Part shown: positions 1 to 61,644 of the stretch, piece after piece | How the letters are laid out: the number at the start of each line of letters is the position of its first letter | Numbering within the stretch: the stretch's first letter is position 1 | Source: Nitrosopumilaceae archaeon | GTDB lineage: Archaea; Thermoproteota; Nitrososphaeria; Nitrososphaerales; Nitrosopumilaceae | Assembly: GCA_965208905.1 (NCBI GenBank) | Contig: OZ242365.1 | Span: 1,280,001 to 1,344,000, forward strand | DNA: 64,000 nt | Direction: 5' to 3' | The notes under the pieces: model-generated | What the model was told of the DNA's origin: nothing | Databases searched by the model: none | The model's input: only the letters and a program-made list of their open reading frames with translations | Made by a program: the position numbers and the translations under genes

Positions 1-1337
1 TATCCATACCAAGCGGTAGACAGTGGATAGTGGGTCATGACGAATTGGATGTTTTATATCATAAAAAACGAATACGTTTCACAGAGAAAAGAGCAGATTG
101 GATATACTATCCAGAAGATGCTCCAAGAATAATAACAAATGTCTGGGAAGGGATGCAAATAAATCAGAAAAACTATGTGATTGAAACAAAAGACAAGGTA
201 CTGGAACGGTGCATACAACTAACCACGGATGTGGGTGATTTAGTACTAGACATTACCGGTGGAAGTGGCGTGACCGCATATGCTGCCGAAAAGTGGGGCA
301 GGCGTTGGATAACATGTGATGTATCACGTGTGTCTATTGCAACCATAAAATGGCGCCTACAAACTGCTTCATTTCTCTGGTATAAACTGACCAATGATGT
401 CGAAGGTGTGGATAGTGGTTTTGAATACGAGACGTTCTTCAAACGATCCGCAAAGACTCTATCAAACACTGAAGATTTGGATGAGAGCATTCGGTATGAC
501 AAACCCAAGATAGTAAAGGAGAGGAGTCGCGTAACAGGACCATTTACAATAGATGCCATACCGGCACCCACAATATCAAACGATACCGTCAAGACTTCTG
601 TACGAAGCGACTGGTTAACAAAACTGGCTGACTCTGGTATTGTGACAAATACCGGACAGCGACTGGTGTTTGATAGAGTAGAGCGAAACACGGATGTAAA
701 GTCCCCAATACACGCCTCTGCATTTACGGGAAAGAAAAAGACTGCCATCTCCTTTGGGTCGGAACATGGGCCCATGAGTGTGTATCAAGTGGAGTCTGTC
801 TTGAACGATGTTAGTACTGATGCTATCTTTATTGCATTTGTCTTTGATCCACACGCACAGTCTCTTATAGGCAATACAGAGAATGCATTTGCCGTTAGCA
901 TGAACAACGACATATTGATTGAGGATCTTAAATCCAAATCCACTGACCAACCATTTAGCATCATCGGTGAGCCAGACATTAAAATCCGCCACAACAACGA
1001 CAAATTCACAGTAGAGTTGTTGGGCTATAATTACTACGACCCACATAAAGGGAAGAACATAGTCGGCAACACACAGAATGTGGCAATGTGGATGCTGGAT
1101 ACTGATTATGACGGAAGAACATTACGAGTTAAGCAGTTCTTCTTTCCAAATAAACAAGATGCGTGGAAAGATCTAGAAAAAACACTGCGCAGTAGTGTAA
1201 ATACCGAACTGTTGGAAAAGTATCTTGGCACAGAATCTATCCCATTTGAAAGTGGAAATTATAAAAAAATTGCCATCAAGGTGATTGATATGGATGGTAA
1301 CGAGTCTATGAAGGTGGAAGGATTAGAAGAATGGTAA
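1..1337 (+). CDS. mod: Type III restriction-modification methyltransferase (Mod), 5'-truncated by window edge
   Basis: SAM-binding motif VLDITGGSGVT, AAEKWGRRWITCD, RVTGPFT and WMLDTDYDG..F segments typical of long Mod subunits; overlaps the res start. Confidence 0.9.
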   Translation, partial: SIPSGRQWIVGHDELDVLYHKKRIRFTEKRADWIYYPEDAPRIITNVWEGMQINQKNYVIETKDKVLERCIQLTTDVGDLVLDITGGSGVTAYAAEKWGRRWITCDVSRVSIATIKWRLQTASFLWYKLTNDVEGVDSGFEYETFFKRSAKTLSNTEDLDESIRYDKPKIVKERSRVTGPFTIDAIPAPTISNDTVKTSVRSDWLTKLADSGIVTNTGQRLVFDRVERNTDVKSPIHASAFTGKKKTAISFGSEHGPMSVYQVESVLNDVSTDAIFIAFVFDPHAQSLIGNTENAFAVSMNNDILIEDLKSKSTDQPFSIIGEPDIKIRHNNDKFTVELLGYNYYDPHKGKNIVGNTQNVAMWMLDTDYDGRTLRVKQFFFPNKQDAWKDLEKTLRSSVNTELLEKYLGTESIPFESGNYKKIAIKVIDMDGNESMKVEGLEEW

Positions 1338-4075
1338 AAGGTATAGACAAGCTCATAATCTGCAACCCATATGAAAAGCCCAACCAATACTACAAGTACG
1401 ACTCGGAACTTGACGGTTATCACAAGATGACTGGGAGGCGTCCATCCGGATACCAAAGCATGAATGAAAATGGTGTATATGGCATACATAGGGAAATACA
1501 CACTGTCAATAAAATACGAAAACTTGTTGATGAGTGGCGGGATGCTGGTTATCCAGATACTACCAAAACCACCAAAAAACTACTAAATCACTGGAAAAGC
1601 AAGAAAGAGATGAGATTGTTTTTCTGCCAGATGGAGGCTATAGAGACCATCATATATGCAATGGAACATCGAGATAAAGTCAACAAAATAATACAGGGGG
1701 ATGATGGTCCATTCAGCCGTTATTGTACCAAGATGGCTACCGGTACTGGCAAGACAATCATAATGGGGCTGTTGATTGCATGGCAGGTTCTAAACTCCGG
1801 TTCAAGATACACAAAAAATATTCTGGTTGTAACCCCCAACCTAACAGTCAAGGATAGACTACAAGTACTACATCCTGGCAATCCCAAGAACATCTATGAT
1901 GAGTTTGACATGATGCCACCGGGAATGAAGCGTGAAATGTTGGGCAGTGCCCGCATCACTATAACCAATTTTCAGCAGTTTAAACCAAAAGAGGGAAGTA
2001 AGAACAGTGTAGTAAAACTTGGTAGACAAGGTGCAAAGTCATTTGCCGCATCCATTGTAGGTAGGCAGACGAAAAACATTCTGGTCATAAATGATGAGGG
2101 GCATCATGCGTGGAGACCATCATTTTATTCTAATGCAGATAAAAAAGAGGGTAAAGAGGCGGGAATGTGGACAAACGGTCTGGACCTCATACACGGTATT
2201 TGTAAAATCACCCAGTGTTGTGATTTTTCAGCCACACCATTCGTTCCAACCGGTAAGAGTGCTACAGAAGACACTTTGTTTGGGTGGATTATATCAGACT
2301 TTTCACTTAGTGATGCAATAGAGTCGGGCCTTGTCAAGACTCCTAAAACACCTAAAACCGGTGATAGTTTTTACCGCCTGTATGATGAAGATGTTGCAAA
2401 AGCCCTTGGCTCAACAAAGATGGATAGACTGCCAGACAAGGTTGAAAGAGCATACAGCCTTCTTGGTAAAGGATGGGAGAAAGTTAACAAGTTATGGAGA
2501 GAAAACAGGCGGCCCACACCACCTGCCATGATTACTGTTTGTAACAACACACGTCATGCCAAACGCATAGCAGATAATCTTGAGCGAAACACGGTTGGAC
2601 TGAATACAGATCTTGTCAAGTCTGAATCCCTTCTACATATTGATTCAACAACCATAGAAGATGATACAAGTATGCGGGACAAAGTAGCTACAGTTGGAAA
2701 AAGTGGCGAGTCGGGTGAAAAAATCTGCAATATTGTATCTGTTGATATGCTGACTGAGGGATGGGACGCGAGAACAGTCACCCATATTATGGGACTTCGG
2801 GCCTTCAAATCACAACTTCTATGCGAGCAGGTGATTGGCAGAGGTCTGCGCCGCACCAGTTACGATGTAAATGAAGACGGATATTTTGAAACGGAGCATG
2901 TTGACATATTAGGTGTTCCCTTTGCCGGCATATTGTCAGAAGAGGCAGAACAACTTGGAGGAGGGACGACAGTAATACCGGTGGATATTTATCCAGACAA
3001 GCCGGAACATATTATCGCGTGGCCCATCATAACGGAGATCCGCGAGACCGTTACGTATAAGACTGAAATAGACTGGGAAAAAATCACACCACTTGACTTT
3101 GACAAAACAATACCTTCGTCAGTGTCACTAGGCCCTCTTATTGATGGATGGGTTTCCAAAGACAGTGTGACCTTTGAACTCAAAAACCGAAAGCAGACGG
3201 TCATGTATGGTATTTTGCAGAGTATAATGAGTAACTACCACCAGCTCGAAAGGGAGCAGATAATTGCAGAGTATAGTCCATATGTCAATAATCCACAGGG
3301 GCTGACTATATCCATACTTTACAACATCAAAGAGTATGTGAGAAGATTCATTGATATGAAATTTCCAGACAGATCTGAACAGGTATTGTTTGACCACCGC
3401 GATGATGTTGCGCGACATATTTACAAAAATCTCGTAACTGCTGAGCCACTAACAAAGCCCAAAGTAGAAGTCGATGGTACAGATAACACAGACATACCGC
3501 GTAGGGCGACTACGAATCAAAGGCGCTTTGCTCCAAAAAAGACGCATCTTAACTTAATTACCGCGGCCAGAGATTTTGAGATACGTATAGGTAAGATGCT
3601 TGACAAGGATCAGCATGTACATTCTTGGATCAAGTCGGATATGGTGAGATTTTCCATACAATACGAGCATCCCGACGGTTCAAGACGCAACTATCTGCCA
3701 GACTTTATTGCACATTTGAATACTGGTGTTCAACTAGTCATAGAAGGTAAGGGCAAAGAAGATGATGTTGATATTGCCAAGAAAAAAGCATTAAGACGAT
3801 GGGTAGATGCAGTTAATCAAGATGGGAGGTATGGTGTATGGGATTCTACTACACTATATTCAGACAAGGATCTCCAAGCCAGCCTAACAGATGCCATACA
3901 GGCTTCATCGGATAGGCCATATACAGTAGTATGTGAGAGGTGTGGTTTCACCGCTAGCACGCTTGCCGAATCAGTTGGTGTATTTGGTGTTGAGAATAAC
4001 AGGGGAATACTCAAGGTATCTACACTATGCGTTGACTGTCAAAAGGTGATTAAAAACACATCAAGCAACAACTAG
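1331..4075 (+). CDS. res: Type III restriction endonuclease/helicase (Res) with C-terminal Cys4 extension
   Basis: Walker A MATGTGKT, DEGHH, FSATP, MLTEGWDA, QVIGRGLRR helicase motifs; PDF..VIEGKG nuclease motif; tail CERC..CVDC. Confidence 0.92.
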   Translation: MVKGIDKLIICNPYEKPNQYYKYDSELDGYHKMTGRRPSGYQSMNENGVYGIHREIHTVNKIRKLVDEWRDAGYPDTTKTTKKLLNHWKSKKEMRLFFCQMEAIETIIYAMEHRDKVNKIIQGDDGPFSRYCTKMATGTGKTIIMGLLIAWQVLNSGSRYTKNILVVTPNLTVKDRLQVLHPGNPKNIYDEFDMMPPGMKREMLGSARITITNFQQFKPKEGSKNSVVKLGRQGAKSFAASIVGRQTKNILVINDEGHHAWRPSFYSNADKKEGKEAGMWTNGLDLIHGICKITQCCDFSATPFVPTGKSATEDTLFGWIISDFSLSDAIESGLVKTPKTPKTGDSFYRLYDEDVAKALGSTKMDRLPDKVERAYSLLGKGWEKVNKLWRENRRPTPPAMITVCNNTRHAKRIADNLERNTVGLNTDLVKSESLLHIDSTTIEDDTSMRDKVATVGKSGESGEKICNIVSVDMLTEGWDARTVTHIMGLRAFKSQLLCEQVIGRGLRRTSYDVNEDGYFETEHVDILGVPFAGILSEEAEQLGGGTTVIPVDIYPDKPEHIIAWPIITEIRETVTYKTEIDWEKITPLDFDKTIPSSVSLGPLIDGWVSKDSVTFELKNRKQTVMYGILQSIMSNYHQLEREQIIAEYSPYVNNPQGLTISILYNIKEYVRRFIDMKFPDRSEQVLFDHRDDVARHIYKNLVTAEPLTKPKVEVDGTDNTDIPRRATTNQRRFAPKKTHLNLITAARDFEIRIGKMLDKDQHVHSWIKSDMVRFSIQYEHPDGSRRNYLPDFIAHLNTGVQLVIEGKGKEDDVDIAKKKALRRWVDAVNQDGRYGVWDSTTLYSDKDLQASLTDAIQASSDRPYTVVCERCGFTASTLAESVGVFGVENNRGILKVSTLCVDCQKVIKNTSSNN

Positions 4076-4291
4076 ACATAACACTAACAACATAGGTAAA
4101 AAAGTATCTGCAACACAGTTACCTTCTCCCAAAACACTTGAGAAGTGATAATAGTTCAACTAGTTTCCTTCTAGATGAACATCATCCCTGAGCGACAACT
4201 TCGTACTGACAATGACTGACATAACGAAGAGAAATGTGAGAACACCAAATGTTACCACATTTCCCACATTTTTCTAGGTTGCTGTAACTTT

Positions 4292-4327
4292 CCAGTGCCT
4301 CCCAGTGCCTCCCAGTGCCTCCCAGTG
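4292..4327. repeat. 10-bp tandem repeat (CCAGTGCCTC)x3.6
   Basis: tccagtgcct cccagtgcct cccagtgcct cccagtg read directly. Confidence 0.9.
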
Positions 4328-4504
4328 TGTATGTTTATGCTTAGGATACTGAATTTCCCAGAAAACCACATGAATGGGAACTTCAATTGAAAATCTTGAT
4401 CAAATACAGAGGCAAAATTAAGAGGGTTTAGTCATGAAGGGCACATTCCCTCCAGTCATACCGTAAATCACCACCTTAAATAGTGCCGATACGTTACCAC
4501 ACAA

Positions 4505-5806
4505 ATGAATTACAGAAAACAGAGAGGCATATTGATAACAAAACAAAAGAATCAGATTCGTCAAGTAGATGATTCTACATACGAGGTGTGTTCACAGACT
4601 GAACCTGGCATCAAGTATACGTTGACACGTACATCCCGTAGTTGGGATTGTAACTGTCCTGATGATGCGATATATTGCAAGCATGCGTATGCTCTGGAAG
4701 AACACCTTGGCATGAAACCACGCGTAGACAGGGGCCGTTTAATACACGAGATGGGAGGTCAGGTGGAGTGCATATCACTAGACCACTATCTAGTCAAATC
4801 ACAGAGTATTGATGAATCATACGAAGTACGTGATTTTGGTAGTGGTTGGATATGTTCATGTCCAGACCACATACATACAGGGAGTACATGCAAACACATT
4901 CAAGCCGTACAGTGGAGCAATAGAGAACGGCGTGTAATAGAAGAACCAAGGCAGATTTTATGTCTGCGCTGCGGTTCATCCGACATTATACAGAAGGGGG
5001 TGCGCAGCGGCAATCACCGGTTCCAATGCAAATCATGCGGCAAATACTTTACAGACAATCTTGGATTTGAGGGGCGGCGTTCCGCCCCAGAGTACATTAC
5101 AGTCGCTGTAGAACTGGTGTATGCGGGACTGTCCATACGAAAAACCGTAAAGGCACTACACTCAATATACTGCAAGGTTGGCCGCTCTACCATACATCGC
5201 TGGGCAGACCAGTACGGCCATATGATGGATGAATATCTTGATGGGATAACTCCACTGGTGGGGGAGGAGTGGCGTACCGACGAAATATACGTAAAGATAC
5301 GCGGGAAGCGAAAGTACCTGTTCGCGATGCTGGATTCAGAGACAAGATATTGGATTGCCAGACAGGTTGCCACACACAAAGGTACTGATGATGTACGACC
5401 GATGTTTAAGCAGGCCAAAGACATAACAGGTAAAATTCCATCCAAACTGATATCTGATGGTGCATCCAACTTTGCCGAGGCTCACAAAGATGAGTACGCT
5501 CCCAAGAACTACCTGTGGAAGAGTTCCGTGCATGAGTCACACATACGCATGGATGGCGATATACACAACAACCAGATGGAGTCTTTCAATGGAAATACCA
5601 TACGGCTGCGCGAGAAGATTGTACGCGGTTTGAAGAAGGAGGATGCGGCACTGCTTGCAGGTTTGAAGGTGTATCATAACCATGTAAGGCCACATCTGGG
5701 ACTGCCTGACGGACAGACTCCAGGCGAGGCATCAGGTATACATGTTGATGGTGTAAACAAGATACTCACGATTATACGCGCTGCTGCCAAGGCGCGTAAC
5801 AACTAG
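4505..5806 (+). CDS. IS6-like DDE transposase with two N-terminal SWIM fingers and a Zn ribbon
   Basis: SWIM CNC..CKH and CSC..CKH; CLRC..CKSC ribbon; HTH; DDE motifs WRTDE, ISDG, NNQMES; paralog of 57783-59027. Confidence 0.9.
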   Translation: MNYRKQRGILITKQKNQIRQVDDSTYEVCSQTEPGIKYTLTRTSRSWDCNCPDDAIYCKHAYALEEHLGMKPRVDRGRLIHEMGGQVECISLDHYLVKSQSIDESYEVRDFGSGWICSCPDHIHTGSTCKHIQAVQWSNRERRVIEEPRQILCLRCGSSDIIQKGVRSGNHRFQCKSCGKYFTDNLGFEGRRSAPEYITVAVELVYAGLSIRKTVKALHSIYCKVGRSTIHRWADQYGHMMDEYLDGITPLVGEEWRTDEIYVKIRGKRKYLFAMLDSETRYWIARQVATHKGTDDVRPMFKQAKDITGKIPSKLISDGASNFAEAHKDEYAPKNYLWKSSVHESHIRMDGDIHNNQMESFNGNTIRLREKIVRGLKKEDAALLAGLKVYHNHVRPHLGLPDGQTPGEASGIHVDGVNKILTIIRAAAKARNN

Positions 5807-29508: not shown

Positions 29509-30770
29509 TGGCTCGCATATACGTTGAAGCTCATGGATGTGCCGCCAGTTATTCGGATTCTGAGATGATATCAGGTATATTGTCTGGAGCGGGTCATACA
29601 CTTACCGGTGATAGGAGTGAATCTGACATAGGCGTGTTGGTCACATGCTCGGTCAAGGATGCGACTGCGAACAAGATGATACATCGAATTAAGACCATGG
29701 GAGATCGACCTTTGGTGGTGGCAGGATGTATGCCCAAAGCAGAACAAAAGACTGTGGAGAAGTTTGCAGACAATGCTAGTTTAATGGGCCCTAACTCTAT
29801 AGGGAGTACTCTTGATGTGGTGAATGATACACTAGTTGGTATACGTCGAGAGGAGCTGAATGTTGATAAATCTGACAAACTTACTCTTCCCAGAGTACGA
29901 ATAAATCAGTCCATATCCATAGTGCAGATAGCAACAGGATGCATGAGCGACTGCTCATTCTGTCAAACTAAATTGGCCAAGGGCGACATATCCAGTCATC
30001 GTATAGGTGATATAGTTAGGCAAGTACGTCATGATGTACAGGATGGCTGTAAAGAGATATGGTTGAGCAGTACAGATAATGGGTGCTACGGATTAGACAT
30101 AGGTACTGACCTGCCTAGCCTGATCAATGCTATAGTGAAGATAGATGGTGATTTTATGATACGTGTGGGAATGATGAACCCAATGTATATGCCTCGTATA
30201 CGGGACTCTTTGTTAAAGTCGTATGAGTCAGAGAAAGTGTACAAATTTTTACACCTACCCGTACAGAGTGGAAGTGATGATACGCTGATGGGAATGCGTC
30301 GTGGCCATACCAGTAAAACCTTTCGTAGTGTAGTTGAACAGTTCCGACGTAAGTTTCCACGCAGTACCATCTCCACAGACATAATAGTGGGATTTCCCAC
30401 AGAGACCGATGAGGATTTTGCTGGCACTGTATCATTAATCAAAGATATGCGTCCAGATATGGTAAATCTGTCTCGGTATGCTGCAAGACCCGGCACCGAA
30501 GCTGCACAGATGACCCAAATCAGTCCGGATATCGTAAAACAGAGGAGTCGCACACTACATGACATTACTAGGAGGCTATCTCTAGAGTCAAACAAACAAT
30601 GGATTGGATGGCAAGGCGAGGTGTTATTCTCGGAGATGTCCTCAGGCGGAGTACGAGGGCGCAACAAAGCGTACAGACCCATACATGTTGATGGAGCAGA
30701 ACTATCTGTATGCCAGAATGTTTTGGTAAATAATGCCACCGAACATGGCTTAGCTGGGATAATTGTATAA
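29508..30770 (+). CDS. tRNA methylthiotransferase (MiaB/e-MtaB family)
   Basis: HGC..TCSV..GC UPF0004 domain, CMSDCSFC, HLPVQSG, TRAM-like C-terminus. Confidence 0.92.
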   Translation: MARIYVEAHGCAASYSDSEMISGILSGAGHTLTGDRSESDIGVLVTCSVKDATANKMIHRIKTMGDRPLVVAGCMPKAEQKTVEKFADNASLMGPNSIGSTLDVVNDTLVGIRREELNVDKSDKLTLPRVRINQSISIVQIATGCMSDCSFCQTKLAKGDISSHRIGDIVRQVRHDVQDGCKEIWLSSTDNGCYGLDIGTDLPSLINAIVKIDGDFMIRVGMMNPMYMPRIRDSLLKSYESEKVYKFLHLPVQSGSDDTLMGMRRGHTSKTFRSVVEQFRRKFPRSTISTDIIVGFPTETDEDFAGTVSLIKDMRPDMVNLSRYAARPGTEAAQMTQISPDIVKQRSRTLHDITRRLSLESNKQWIGWQGEVLFSEMSSGGVRGRNKAYRPIHVDGAELSVCQNVLVNNATEHGLAGIIV

Positions 30771-30836
30771 AATACACTATTCTCAAAGATCACAAGATGG
30801 ATTGGCATAATAATTATGCCTTCTTAAGCTTCTGTA

Positions 30837-30990
30837 GGGAATTATGTACAAAAGTACACAGCCTCGGCTGTACACTCATGCCTTTTCTGACGACCTCGTT
30901 GTATAGAACGGAGCATGGCGGGTGTTGGCTTGTAGCCCTTCTTATGCCCCGGCCGTCTAAGGACGACGTTCCCCGCCGCCCGATGCAAAA
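30837..30990 (-). ncRNA. Putative omega/reRNA scaffold overlapping the tnpB 3' end
   Basis: GC-rich non-domain ORF tail with hairpins, incl. GTGTACAGC-CGAG-GCTGTGTAC (30875-30854); position expected for TnpB RNAs; boundaries inferred. Confidence 0.5.
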
Positions 30991-32197
30991 TATTCCAGGC
31001 GGCATTGACATCCGCGTGAAACACTCTGGTACAGTTAGTGCAAATGAATTTGTCGCACGTGATACGCGACTCCGAGTCTACGTGACCACACATATGGCAC
31101 GTCTGGTTTGTATATTTGGCCATCACCCCGCATAGCGGAATTCCCTCCCTCTCGCATCGCTGCGCCAACTTCCGTAGAAACTCACCAAGTCTATTCTCCC
31201 GCATGGAGCGATTCATGTGTCTTTTATAATTCCCGCCATGTGTAGTCATGCCCTGTATAGATAATATCTCGGCTATGATGGCATCCGCGCCTTGTACGAT
31301 ACACGATACGGTCTGATTTATGGTGTTTACGGCGATGCCATCAGCCTTCCTGTATAGTTGCTTTATTTGGTCGTTCAATATGTGCCACTTCCGGCCATGC
31401 CGTACCTTGTGGTCGCGCAGGCTCTTGAGAGCGTCTATCTCCCGCAGGATTTCTCTATGGCGTGTGTTGTGTATTATTACATTGCCGTTTGTATCGACCG
31501 TAACTGCAAGGTGCTTGCCTCCCACATCAACACCCCGTACTATACCCGTATTACGGTGCGGTTTTACCGGTATATGCACTGCAATATGCAATTCAAACAT
31601 GTGGTCTGACGGCTTGGTGTATTTGGTTACCTTCTTGGTGACATCGACTATCTTGAATGACCGCATATCCCATGATACGTCAATGGGCTTGGCGGTCTTT
31701 ACTGTGCCGTATCCGGGGATATGTATGGTATGCTCATCCTTCCGTACAGGCGGTGTAACGGAACTAAGTATAATGCGGCCGTCTTTACGGCGGTATGGCG
31801 CGTGGTTGGAGTTGTCATCCATAACTCTTCTACATGCAACCGAGGCATCCTGTATGGCGCCGCGTCCAAATACCATAGGTAAGTCAGATATCCAATCTGA
31901 CTCTGCGCGCCACTCCGTAAGTTGTTTGTACATGCCGTACTTTAGTTTCCTCTTTGATGGCCCAAAGTCATATACCTGGTAGTCATCTTCCAGTGTAGCT
32001 GATGTAAAACCATCCAGTGTGTTTGGTAGTTTGAATGGCTGTAGTATATATACCACCACCCTCTCCATATATTCGCCGCCAAACATATACTCTGATACGG
32101 CCCTATTGTACACATACCGTACCACATGGCCCATGCGGTGCGCCCAATCTGCAAACAACTCATCCCTGTATAGCGGTACCCTGACTATCCGTATCAT
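30842..32197 (-). CDS. tnpB: TnpB-family RNA-guided endonuclease
   Basis: RYVYN helix; RuvC-I GVDVG, RuvC-II IIAEIL, Zn finger CHMC..CTNC, RuvC-III HADVNAAWNI. Confidence 0.93.
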   Translation of the reverse strand: MIRIVRVPLYRDELFADWAHRMGHVVRYVYNRAVSEYMFGGEYMERVVVYILQPFKLPNTLDGFTSATLEDDYQVYDFGPSKRKLKYGMYKQLTEWRAESDWISDLPMVFGRGAIQDASVACRRVMDDNSNHAPYRRKDGRIILSSVTPPVRKDEHTIHIPGYGTVKTAKPIDVSWDMRSFKIVDVTKKVTKYTKPSDHMFELHIAVHIPVKPHRNTGIVRGVDVGGKHLAVTVDTNGNVIIHNTRHREILREIDALKSLRDHKVRHGRKWHILNDQIKQLYRKADGIAVNTINQTVSCIVQGADAIIAEILSIQGMTTHGGNYKRHMNRSMRENRLGEFLRKLAQRCEREGIPLCGVMAKYTNQTCHMCGHVDSESRITCDKFICTNCTRVFHADVNAAWNILHRAAGNVVLRRPGHKKGYKPTPAMLRSIQRGRQKRHECTAEAVYFCT

Positions 32198-32494
32198 AAT
32201 GTGTTATACGGTATATGGTATTTAAGGGGATTGATGCAGTCACGAAATCTGTGTTGGGTCAGCATTGACTCTCAAAACAGAGGCTGTGTACTTTTGTATG
32301 TAATTCCCCTTCTGTACTATCTACGTGAGTTGGCAACCACTGTAACATGTGTGAGTTGGGGCCGTAGTCGGAGGATCCGATCTTTGTAAGAATGAAAAAG
32401 GGCAAAGGGTGATGGTTAGACTGCCAACCTTGTGGCGACCTGTATGGGGGTCATCCACTTGTTGGTTCCTTCGATGGTTATCCCGGCGGCCTAG

Positions 32495-32956
32495 TCAACC
32501 GGTCGGTTCAATACATGCCGTACTGCTGATGTACTCGGCAACGAACAGACTATCTATGCGAACCATTGGACCTTCGTTGCCCTGTATGCACTCGGCATGC
32601 GTGTGCATGTTATGCTGGTGTGTGCTCAGGTGCAGGATGAGCTGCGCGCCTGTTTCAAGATTGGCTACCCCGACGCGCAGCGAACCGCCGCCGATATGGG
32701 CGTTACCTTCGAACTCCTCCTTGGCGTTGGGGAACCGCTCGTACATTGTCAGATACGCCGGATGTTCCGCAAACGCCTCCATCAACTCCTCGTTGGACCG
32801 AGTGTCGATGCTCAGCCTCCCAAGATCGCTGTACAGCACCAGCCCGGGGACGACCGTCAGCAGGAACAGGGTGAACAGGGTAATTCCCATGCCTATCCCT
32901 AGATAGTATGCAAGGCGTTGAATCTTTTCCAATGGATGGTACCCGCGAACAATCAC
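32495..32956 (-). CDS. Membrane-anchored protein, paralog A
   Basis: N-terminal TM; aligns with 32989-33408; start uncertain. Confidence 0.7.
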   Translation of the reverse strand: MIVRGYHPLEKIQRLAYYLGIGMGITLFTLFLLTVVPGLVLYSDLGRLSIDTRSNEELMEAFAEHPAYLTMYERFPNAKEEFEGNAHIGGGSLRVGVANLETGAQLILHLSTHQHNMHTHAECIQGNEGPMVRIDSLFVAEYISSTACIEPTG

Positions 32957-32988
32957 ATTTATCTGTGTCTAGCAAATACATCGTCCCG

Positions 32989-33408
32989 ATGGAGGCCCTC
33001 AAGAAAGCTACCTATATCACGGTCATATCAGTATCACTCATACTATGCGTGATATTCGTGTTGATGGCGATACCCAACCTAGCAACTACCTGGGAACATC
33101 ATCAAGAGCGCATAGATCCCGACGAGGCAATCGCCGCGATACGGGACGATGCCGCCTACCGGGCACTCTACGAACGATACCCAGACGCGGTTGAAAGGGT
33201 CAACCAGGACCGCTACCAGGTGGAACTGGAGGCTGGGGTAATGAACACTGATACCGGCAACCAACTCGTCCTGAGGATATATGCCTTTCCGGGAGACCGC
33301 CACATAACGGTGCATTGCTTCTACATGGCCAACGACGAGGAACAATACGTTGACGGACTATTCGCCGCCGAGTTTGTCAGGACGACAGACTGCATATCCG
33401 CACCATGA
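32989..33408 (+). CDS. Membrane-anchored protein, paralog B
   Basis: N-terminal TM; AY..YER.P.A, G..N..TG.QL.L, D.LF.AE....T.CI shared with paralog A; ATG 32989 preferred. Confidence 0.7.
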   Translation: MEALKKATYITVISVSLILCVIFVLMAIPNLATTWEHHQERIDPDEAIAAIRDDAAYRALYERYPDAVERVNQDRYQVELEAGVMNTDTGNQLVLRIYAFPGDRHITVHCFYMANDEEQYVDGLFAAEFVRTTDCISAP

Positions 33409-60342: not shown

Positions 60343-61176
60343 GACCGGATCACTTTTGTTTATTTTTGCCCCTATGATTTTTTTGGCGTCCTCATAGTTG
60401 ATGAGCAGGTTACCATCAACTGCAAACGAGAACAAGAGATCAACCCACCTCGTGGCCATAATCTTCTTTCTGCGTATGCGGTATCGTTTATCTTCTTCTA
60501 CAAGTGAGTACAGGAAAAACATGAATGTCTCAGTAGAGTAGGACTTGATCTCATGCGTTTGTATCTTGAATTTCGATGTGAACTGCTCCCACAACTCGTC
60601 CTGCATGACGGCTATATATGGCATCTTCCATTCGTCGAACAACTGTCCCTTGAAGATAAACTGTGGTAGAAATCCCTTGAAGGACGCAAGCGTATTTAAC
60701 CCAAATGTGTAACTTTTTTTGAGCCTATCATTTAACAGGTCATCTATCGCAGTCGCAAATGATCCCGTACCCGTTGTGGCATCGGACTGTATCTCTACCC
60801 CTATGAACCTGTTTGGGTCTCTGACCGGTGTTAATATCCAGTCAAGATTACCGTAATCAAATCTCTCGTTGTCTGTCTTCTTTGCCAGTTTGACTTCGTT
60901 GCGTGCGTCAGTTTGTACCTCGGATCCCCAAATAAAGTCTCGTATTTCGTGCAGTATCTTATAATCGTCCTCATAAAATCGCCGCGGGCAGATGATCCTG
61001 TTTCTGTCTCCCAGACATGCAGAACAGTTGCCGTATTTCGATGCAGTTCGGTTGGGCTTGTCACACTGGACGATGCGCCTGTCAAACGGACACCCATAAT
61101 CGCGGTTGCGAAAGCGGGCCTTGGCCACGTCTGAATCGAATTTTTCGCCAAACGCCTCCAACTGTCTATTTGTCAT
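60331..61176 (-). CDS. NotI-like type II restriction endonuclease
   Basis: EAFG, CPF..C.K...G.CS...ICPRRF Cys4 cluster, EV, GNLD, GVEIQ nuclease core. Confidence 0.8.
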   Translation of the reverse strand: MTNRQLEAFGEKFDSDVAKARFRNRDYGCPFDRRIVQCDKPNRTASKYGNCSACLGDRNRIICPRRFYEDDYKILHEIRDFIWGSEVQTDARNEVKLAKKTDNERFDYGNLDWILTPVRDPNRFIGVEIQSDATTGTGSFATAIDDLLNDRLKKSYTFGLNTLASFKGFLPQFIFKGQLFDEWKMPYIAVMQDELWEQFTSKFKIQTHEIKSYSTETFMFFLYSLVEEDKRYRIRRKKIMATRWVDLLFSFAVDGNLLINYEDAKKIIGAKINKSDPVSTF

Positions 61177-61644
61177 GAAATATGTTGACTGACTTGTTTA
61201 TAATATATCTTGAGAGTGTGTGATATAATTCCCGGGGATTCCTAGGTCACCCACGCACCACCGTACAACAGGTCACCAAGATGCACCAGTTCCTATTTCG
61301 TGCAGTATCTTATAATCGTCCTCATAAAATCGCCGCGGGCAGATGATCCTGTTTCTGTCTCCCAGACATGCAGAACAGTTGCCGTATTTCGATGCAGTTC
61401 GGTTGGGCTTGTCACACTGGACGATGCGCCTGTCAAACGGACACCCATAATCGCGGTTGCGAAAGCGGGCCTTGGCCACGTCTGAATCGAATTTTTCGCC
61501 AAACGCCTCCAACTGTCTATTTGTCATGAAATATGTTGACTGACTTGTTTATAATATATCTTGAGAGTGTGTGATATAATTCCCGGGGATTCCTAGGTCA
61601 CCCACGCACCACCGTACAACAGGTCACCAAGATGCACCAGTTCC
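60943..61644. repeat. Tandem duplication of 351 bp (60943-61293 = 61294-61644)
   Basis: Identical by eye; each copy ends at the TIR terminus CAGTTCC; yields the truncated REase copy 61273-61527. Confidence 0.95.

Follow-up and report, generated by a model that had tools for sequence, protein, structure and literature searches.

The locus described here raises the question of what an RNA-guided nuclease gene does between the inverted repeats of a transposon that duplicates its target, and from where such a nuclease would take its guide. Most of what is understood of prokaryotic TnpB comes from IS605 and IS607 elements, with their scarless excision, and its role in DDE cut-and-paste transposons is raised as a question in the cited sections of a 2026 review (PMC13565253). 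The gene lies in a 64,000-nt stretch of archaeal DNA (the window, to which coordinates refer unless given otherwise). The original prediction for this stretch proposed that an omega-RNA overlaps the 3' end of tnpB and is fused to the terminal inverted repeat, with a guide taken either from the flank or from the element's own end. Our analysis favors the flank, and we put the probability at about 0.6 that the whole model holds, namely, that a tnpB cassette of IS1595 type makes an omega-RNA reaching to its terminus, uses the target duplication and the adjoining flank as its guide, and cuts empty alleles.

The element is 1472 bp long (30837-32308), and tnpB is its sole long open reading frame (ORF). 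Its parts at the DNA level are as follows.

30837-30865: right-end terminal inverted repeat (pair I1), overlapping the ORF end, the 3' arm of the terminal hairpin and the tail of the RNA scaffold
32280-32308: left-end terminal inverted repeat (pair I1), 29 nt, complementary to 30837-30865 at 27/29 positions (93%)
32309-32316: left copy of the target site duplication (8 bp, TACAGAAG in the direction of tnpB), identical to 30829-30836
30842-32197, minus strand: tnpB ORF, 451 aa, ending within the right repeat with a TAA (30842-30844) that leaves 5 nt to the terminus
32219-32225, minus strand: TTAAATA, resembling a TATA box, 22-28 nt before the start codon (ATG) of tnpB

The right copy of the duplication reads TACAGAAG from 30836 to 30829 on the minus strand, and the flank before the left copy reads ..GATAG, as had been noted before. 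The original prediction was also correct in that the tnpB ORF continues through the structured region of the minus strand; it had neither named the 8-bp direct repeat as a target duplication nor recognized the IS1595-type character of the ends. The element is bordered by housekeeping genes, one for a MiaB-like methylthiotransferase and one of fumarate-lyase type. A CDC48 AAA ATPase and an archaeal-type MiaB are also encoded in the window and indicate an archaeal host.

The whole protein matches the NCBIfam model guided_TnpB (NF040570) with 138 bits against a curated cut-off of 100 (E = 4.9e-40), and Pfam PF07282 (Cas12f1-like_TNB) is matched with 58.4 bits against a cut-off of 26.3 (8e-16). 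The solved structures closest to the 451-aa protein are TnpB and Cas12f chains. When it is aligned to 8iaz_A, a solved chain, the D and E of its motifs GVDVGG and AEILS, respectively, fall on the D and E of that chain; HADVNAAWNI is present too, with its D shifted by two positions in the same alignment. We provisionally take these three motifs to carry the D-E-D residues of a RuvC domain, and the CHMC and CTNC motifs visible in the translation to form a CxxC..CxxC zinc finger. The TTAAATA upstream of the gene, which is likewise found in a copy of the element that bears an internal deletion, is a possible promoter for a leaderless tnpB mRNA, a reading that draws on general features of archaeal promoters.

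The cassette is one of a family. The 2.2-Mb genome holds 15 full-length copies that are 79-88% identical to the window copy, and further copies include one interrupted by an IS630-type insertion (DDE_3) and the one with the internal deletion. Among the full-length copies, the ORF of 450-451 aa is intact in 14/15 and ends 5 nt from the terminus in all 15, and the 8-bp duplication is perfect in 11/15, with one more matching at 7/8 positions. The terminal 12-mer occurs 92 times in the genome (at most one mismatch), against about 10 occurrences expected by chance, and pairs of such termini with an 8-bp duplication delimit 26 bounded elements, 16 with a TnpB match and 10 without. All four strong matches to PF12762, the IS1595 transposase (E ~1e-41), lie within TnpB-less elements of this kind, and those four elements have the same GGGAATTATA.. 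termini and the 8-bp duplication, with 10-13 terminal bases in common with the cassette.

Members of the IS1595 family have inverted repeats starting with GGG and an 8-bp duplication, and some of them bear passenger genes. The cassette is like them in its repeats and duplication, and the four autonomous copies in this genome share its 10-13 terminal bases; it differs in that it encodes no DDE_Tnp_IS1595 transposase and in its cargo, an RNA-guided nuclease whose predicted RNA and whose ORF both make use of the repeat. Because its termini are shared with elements that do encode an IS1595 transposase, the cassette is most probably a transposase-less passenger moved in trans by IS1595-family enzymes, rather than an autonomous member of that family. 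Membership in IS200/IS605 as a TnpB-only element of the IS1341 group was also considered and is ruled out by the 29-nt inverted repeats and the 8-bp duplication.

Elements with these termini come in several other forms. One autonomous IS1595-family element (G000:C1 1770047-1772736; PF12762, 2.8e-40) bears a passenger ORF of its own, an N6/N4 DNA methylase fused to an HNH nuclease domain, and a group of miniature elements, 45-450 bp long and devoid of TnpB, shares these termini and has 8-bp duplications. Their locations are as follows.

G000:C1 658457-658571, 341419-341790, 759618-760047, 177091-177540 and 882738-882782: miniature elements

In addition, three solo right-end fragments of 164-200 nt (G000:C1 1493807-1494006, 1694379-1694542 and 2197132-2197325) keep the whole scaffold region, with no left end nearby, and could be either decay remnants or stand-alone guide-RNA genes.

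If the nuclease is guided, its RNA should be sought at the 3' end of the gene, and the last ~145 nt of the tnpB strand indeed look like a conserved RNA scaffold, which we predict from paralogous sequences to consist of four stems and a terminal hairpin.

30961-30981, minus strand: stem A, 30981-30974 with 30968-30961, around the apical loop GGGAA (30973-30969); 97% paired, 4/8 pairs changed on both sides
30889-30957, minus strand: stem B, 30957-30952 with 30894-30889, enclosing stems C and D; 97.8% paired, 2/6 pairs changed on both sides
30950-30944 with 30916-30910, minus strand: stem C; 90.4% paired, 5/7 pairs changed on both sides
30938-30936 with 30922-30920, minus strand: stem D; 94.7% paired, 1/3 pairs changed on both sides
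30848-30881, minus strand: terminal hairpin, with 5' arm 30881-30867 (coding), loop CGAG (30866-30863) and 3' arm 30862-30848 (inner part of the repeat); 96.3% paired, 12/14 pairs changed on both sides

Paralogues were used to define this structure because the window copy folded alone is not significant (z = -1.70, with 16/200 shuffles folding equally well). The helices were defined on A3, in which the terminal 150 nt of 20 copies are aligned without gaps; 95.8% of its cells are paired, against 41-54% when the partners are slid. A covariance model built on A3 found 39 instances in 54 loci of five genomes: 20 in this genome, 6 in G008, 11 in G006 and G001, whose TnpB proteins are only 54-56% identical, and 2 in G003. 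In the resulting alignment, 94.7% of cells are paired, and both partners have changed in 24/43 pairs; slid controls gave 5-10 such pairs, and no shuffle out of 500 gave as many as 24. These covariation figures are generous, as the 39 copies are kin and their alignment was fitted to the covariance model; the ungapped family alignment with its slid controls agrees with them. Thus the structure is conserved among homologous loci, a comparison that had been named as a check on the omega-RNA, and an omega-RNA that overlaps the 3' end of tnpB and is fused to the inverted repeat gains support from conservation and covariation in 39 copies from five genomes.

The terminal hairpin lies where the original prediction had placed it, as GTGTACAGC-CGAG-GCTGTGTAC followed by 17 nt and the flank TACAGAAGCTTAAGAAGGCA. 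It is real and turns out to be longer than described, with 14 pairs and one mismatch between 30881-30867 and 30862-30848. The claim that it forms at the right end only also stands: the 60 nt of the right end fold with a mean of -15.4 kcal/mol compared with -6.9 for those of the left end, and the right end folds more stably in 13/14 copies. In the c0728/c1344 subfamily, a change to CTTATC in the repeat is met by a change to GATAAG in the coding arm. The hairpin includes G-U pairs, which would be C-A on the opposite strand. Such pairs are numerous across the structured region, and in 19/20 copies its antisense strand folds less well than its sense strand. Two upstream pairings that the original prediction had named fared differently. 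CATGC..GCATG is paired in 88% of cells, shows no compensatory change and is broken exactly where column 107 varies, and CGTT-CTATAC-AACG is paired in only 53.8% of cells (20 copies); we therefore reject both as conserved structures, the conserved upstream stems being those listed above. We also dropped a 3-bp hairpin between stems C and B that appears compensated by eye when the window copy is compared with the G006 lineage, but for which the alignment registers differ. A scan of 30000-33000 against Rfam returned only two chance-level matches (E = 0.44 and 0.83), one of them to an HDV-like ribozyme model with 22 bits against a gathering score of 44. For residues that are identical, codon identity is 0.85-0.87 over the final 75 codons of tnpB, against a mean of 0.77 over the first 401, and it is high in the first 25 codons too.

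Where the scaffold would end, and the guide begin, is suggested by its last five bases.

30837-30841, minus strand: terminal UUCCC, last bases of the scaffold and candidate pseudoknot partner of the GGGAA loop
30817-30836, minus strand: candidate guide, consisting of the right copy of the duplication (30836-30829) and 12 nt of unique flank, different at every copy

The terminal UUCCC is complementary to the apical loop GGGAA of stem A, 133-137 nt upstream, and the two are paired in 98% of cells within the family and in 88.6% across lineages. Both partners are almost invariant, so that none of the 5 pairs shows compensatory change in the 39-copy alignment, and both are otherwise constrained, one as a Gly codon and the other as the transposase-bound terminus. 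According to the passages of Yoon et al. cited here, TnpB RNAs are annotated with a pseudoknot that joins the apical loop of stem-loop 1 to the five nucleotides next to the guide, and a pair between positions -130 and -3 of the ISXfa1 RNA was confirmed by mutation and rescue (PMC10711439). By analogy, UUCCC probably pairs with the GGGAA loop in the same way; with the published geometry, the scaffold would end at the terminus and the guide would start at the first base of the flank, which is the first base of the duplication. Such a guide would be specific, as none of 20 flanks has a second genomic site with fewer than two mismatches (18-nt search).

A guide of this kind predicts a target-adjacent motif (TAM) on the other side of the empty site, and a motif is found there. 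Insertions were oriented by tnpB and the left flank was read upstream of the left duplication; loci L042 and L034, in which a 7-bp and an 8-bp duplication are equally possible, locus L063, which has no duplication, and all loci with only a right end on the contig were left out of the count. The position directly before the duplication (-1) is G in 15/17 insertions in this genome (binomial p = 2e-8), in 13/13 of those here whose duplication has at most one mismatch, in 7/8 usable insertions of relatives and hence in 22/25 overall. The two insertions lacking this G in this genome are copies without a duplication, and the single one in the relatives belongs to an atypical copy in which both ends are of the right type. 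Over the 25 insertions, T is found at -3 in 14/25 and A at -4 in 13/25, and the duplication starts with T or A in 24/25, while its last positions have no conserved base. The bias is one-sided, since the mirror position of the right flank is at background (C at +1 in 4/17, against 15/17; Fisher p = 4e-4). The comparison of flanks from multiple insertions, which had likewise been named as a check, thus yields a motif of approximately A-T-N-G on one side only, and in the window copy it takes the following form.

32317-32320, minus strand: candidate TAM, reading ATAG in the direction of tnpB, immediately before the left duplication

Where the site is occupied, ..TTCCC stands before the guide sequence in place of this motif. 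Together with the complementarity of UUCCC and GGGAA, the G at -1 in 22/25 insertions leads us to favor a guide taken from the flank combined with a biased insertion site, which was one of the two options originally offered.

These observations lead us to propose how the cassette may work. It would be a non-autonomous cut-and-paste unit of IS1595 type (30837-32308) with tnpB as its only gene. The tnpB mRNA, perhaps initiated from the TATA-like box at 32219-32225, would be read through the right repeat; the 3' part of the transcript, from 30981 to 30837, would become the omega-RNA scaffold, and read-through into the flank would supply the guide, namely, the 8-nt duplication and then some 8-12 nt of flank. 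At an unoccupied or precisely restored site, the match to this guide would be preceded by the left flank, with approximately A-T-N-G acting as the TAM, and the occupied site would be protected because the guide sequence there follows ..TTCCC. The TnpB complex could then cut empty or restored alleles, and recombination with an occupied copy would copy the cassette back. What the sequences show directly is the anatomy of the element, the termini it shares with IS1595 transposase elements, a conserved and covarying structure and the one-sided flank bias; the ends of the RNA, the pseudoknot, the role of the motif as a TAM, cleavage and homing are steps that we infer. In keeping with this scheme, we tentatively read the one-sided A-T-N-G as a mark of survivorship, in which only insertions with a TAM on the 5' side of tnpB are defended and persist and the duplication serves as the seed of the guide, a proposal to which we would give somewhat less than even odds. 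If it is true, the flanks would constitute population-genomic evidence that an OMEGA nuclease makes a DDE cut-and-paste transposon homing, and does so in an archaeon. Contigs of 4 runs from 2 studies covering 30300-32850 showed only occupied junctions; none of them spans the element's site in a joined form, and no empty allele was recovered. Other points also weigh on the model: family III, described below, has the same ends and the same design of a hairpin within the repeat yet no motif, so that the logic is not visibly general, and cut-and-paste excision itself leaves a break, which makes the benefit of homing less obvious than for IS605, as discussed in the sections cited of the 2026 review (PMC13565253).

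The same data can be read in other ways. If the omega-RNA is real but A-T-N-G is an oriented target preference of the mobilizing transposase, the motif would not reveal the true TAM and guide geometry. Such a preference would fit the 10 TnpB-less elements with the same termini, in which G is found at 9/20 ends (p = 0.02, background 0.23), a mild excess, so that the transposase may contribute to the G bias. It would also fit the AT-rich duplications both of the window family (family I) and of the four autonomous IS1595 copies, while the duplications of family III differ and are less AT-rich, and different transposases may be at work there. Yet DDE transposases making staggered cuts usually have two-fold symmetric target preferences, whereas the bias seen here is restricted to the 5' side of tnpB (15/17 against 4/17). 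Moreover, the repeats of family I are near-identical for 24 nt and offer little basis for telling the ends apart, and the motif is placed exactly where a TAM must be if the guide starts at the terminus, so that we consider a pure transposase preference unlikely. A different geometry, in which the duplication belongs to the scaffold, the guide begins after it and the TAM lies within it, has a precedent in Fanzor1 and Fanzor2*, for which repeats and duplications are predicted parts of the scaffold and RNAs reach ~15 nt past the duplication, according to the passages cited (PMC10711439). The duplication of the cassette differs at every copy, however, and cannot be a fixed part of a scaffold; its last positions have no conserved base, and the G at -1 upstream of it would be left unexplained, which together make this geometry improbable.

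No less improbable, in our judgment, is that the conserved pairing reflects a feature of DNA or mRNA, such as a subterminal transposase site or an element for translation or stability, instead of an omega-RNA. The structure matches no Rfam family, and the transposase binds the 3' arm of the hairpin as DNA either way, both of which would agree with such a feature, but stems A to D covary and are located beyond the repeat, at 50-145 nt from the terminus. The many G-U pairs and the poorer folding of the antisense strand in 19/20 copies point to RNA, the structure agrees with TnpB RNAs in position, size and the geometry of its candidate pseudoknot, and the protein has kept its TnpB family score and putative catalytic motifs. 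Least probable of all, we think, is the second option of the original prediction, that the RNA stops at the terminus and that its last 17 nt (UUUUGUAYAUAAUUCCC) are a fixed guide against the repeats of its own and sister copies. These 17 nt are nearly invariant, they do differ from the other element end at 2 positions, as had been stated, and the target would be preceded by GUGUAC, which is present at both ends. Against this idea, binding by the transposase already accounts for the invariance, all ~15 copies of the element would be cleaved through their own ends, and the flank bias would be left unexplained. The last 5 nt, in addition, complement the conserved apical loop and occupy the position of the pseudoknot partner in other TnpB RNAs, as described in the part of the literature cited (PMC10711439). 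We thus return to a guide drawn from duplication and flank as the preferred reading.

At least three more TnpB families, 25-28% identical to the window TnpB, are found between the same GGGAATTATATA.. termini in this genome.

G000:C1 1455264-1456902 and 2049469-2051107: family II
G000:C1 352058-353477, 2062478-2063897 and 553922-555341: family III
G000:C1 913845-915398: family IV

Family III, whose TnpB is only 28% identical, repeats the design of the cassette: its ORF likewise stops at a TAA in the repeat, 5 nt from the terminus, the repeat again forms the 3' arm of a terminal hairpin, and the 8-bp duplication is as here. Among its 24 insertions, no TAM-like motif was found beside the duplication (G at -1 in 7/24), and a search for a loop that could pair with UUCCC gave only an ambiguous GGGGAAGG stretch. 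Because family III shows no such bias, the bias of family I is not general to this kind of transposition in the genus. The two copies of family II are identical over 1639 bp and have exchanged flanks: one copy has GGAAATTA at its right end and the other has it at its left end, an arrangement suggestive of recombination between them. Within family I, the copies L058 (G006) and L032 (G001) have an identical right-end flank in two genomes of the genus and are probably an orthologous insertion, and L058 has a right-type end, hairpin arm included, at both sides.

In ISDra2-type systems, the RNA and the 3' end of tnpB overlap, the right flank provides the guide and the TAM is the sequence to the left of the element. 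The cassette is predicted to resemble these systems in that its scaffold would end at the element boundary, with the bases next to the guide pseudoknotted to an apical loop. It departs from IS200/IS605 in its mode of transposition, as those elements use a Y1 HUH transposase with scarless excision, whereas the cassette has inverted repeats, an 8-bp duplication and a presumed DDE mobilizer; as a consequence, the first 8 bases of its guide would be the duplication itself. The sections cited of the 2026 review describe IS200/IS605 elements as lacking inverted repeats and duplications, as inserting 3' of a short motif and as homing restoratively, and name ISL2, IS630 and IS1031 as the DDE families with TnpB, an association that is called rare and of unclear benefit (PMC13565253).

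An architecture of this kind has been known since 2023, when Altae-Tran et al. described six DDE-associated TnpB branches (DDE-1 to DDE-6) with inverted terminal repeats. In the parts of that paper cited here, the TnpB 3' ends are at most 250 bp away from the transposon end, and there are solo TnpBs bounded by the same ends (PMC10691335). The cassette is like those elements in having a TnpB between the repeats of a DDE transposon, a 3' end near the transposon end and solo copies. Set against what those parts cover, the predicted RNA structure, its overlap with the repeat and the proposed placing of the TAM relative to the duplication are features of the cassette described here; the main text names neither IS1595 nor ISXO2 (PMC10691335). 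Fanzor RNA scaffolds include inverted repeats and duplications, and the pseudoknot is conserved in the RNAs of TnpB and Fanzor2 (Yoon et al. 2023, PMC10711439, in the passages cited). Like Fanzor1 and Fanzor2*, the cassette would have an inverted repeat within its RNA scaffold and a nuclease RNA adapted to a cut-and-paste transposon. In those Fanzors, as the same passages present them, the duplication is a proposed part of the scaffold with the guide after it, whereas in the cassette the duplication is variable and the flank bias would put the TAM upstream of it; moreover, Fanzors reside in eukaryotes or their viruses, and the cassette resides in an archaeon. Among papers on TnpB with IS1595 that were judged by title or the start of the abstract, none concerned this architecture. 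What is new is a scaffold, supported by covariation, whose DNA is also that of the repeat and of the ORF end, together with a one-sided, TAM-like motif and, as we read it, a variable 8-bp duplication at which the guide would start.

With about 15 intact copies in one genome, diverged relatives and an RNA model backed by covariation, the family offers a natural test case for TnpB in a DDE transposon. It displays a triple overlap of ORF, predicted RNA scaffold and transposase site, and it comes with a predicted guide (duplication and flank) and a predicted TAM (A-T-N-G). If confirmed, it would show how the boundary of a guide RNA adapts to a transposon with a variable 8-bp duplication, and it would provide a small archaeal nuclease with a defined scaffold.

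A few further observations concern the window itself. At 1331-5806 lies a tract with an ORF resembling restriction endonucleases of the BPTD_3080 family (721.7 bits, under the cut-off of 800), and the next ORF of the same tract has a weak match to IS6-family transposases (92.5 bits against a cut-off of 125). At 60990-61640, a 351-bp stretch is tandemly doubled; it takes in the start of a gene and a string, GGGAATTATATC.., resembling the element terminus. Finally, contigs of two runs from the second study carry the identical tnpB insertion with base changes at 32314 and 32318, that is, in the left copy of the duplication and at the N of the A-T-N-G motif, and the G at -1 is kept.
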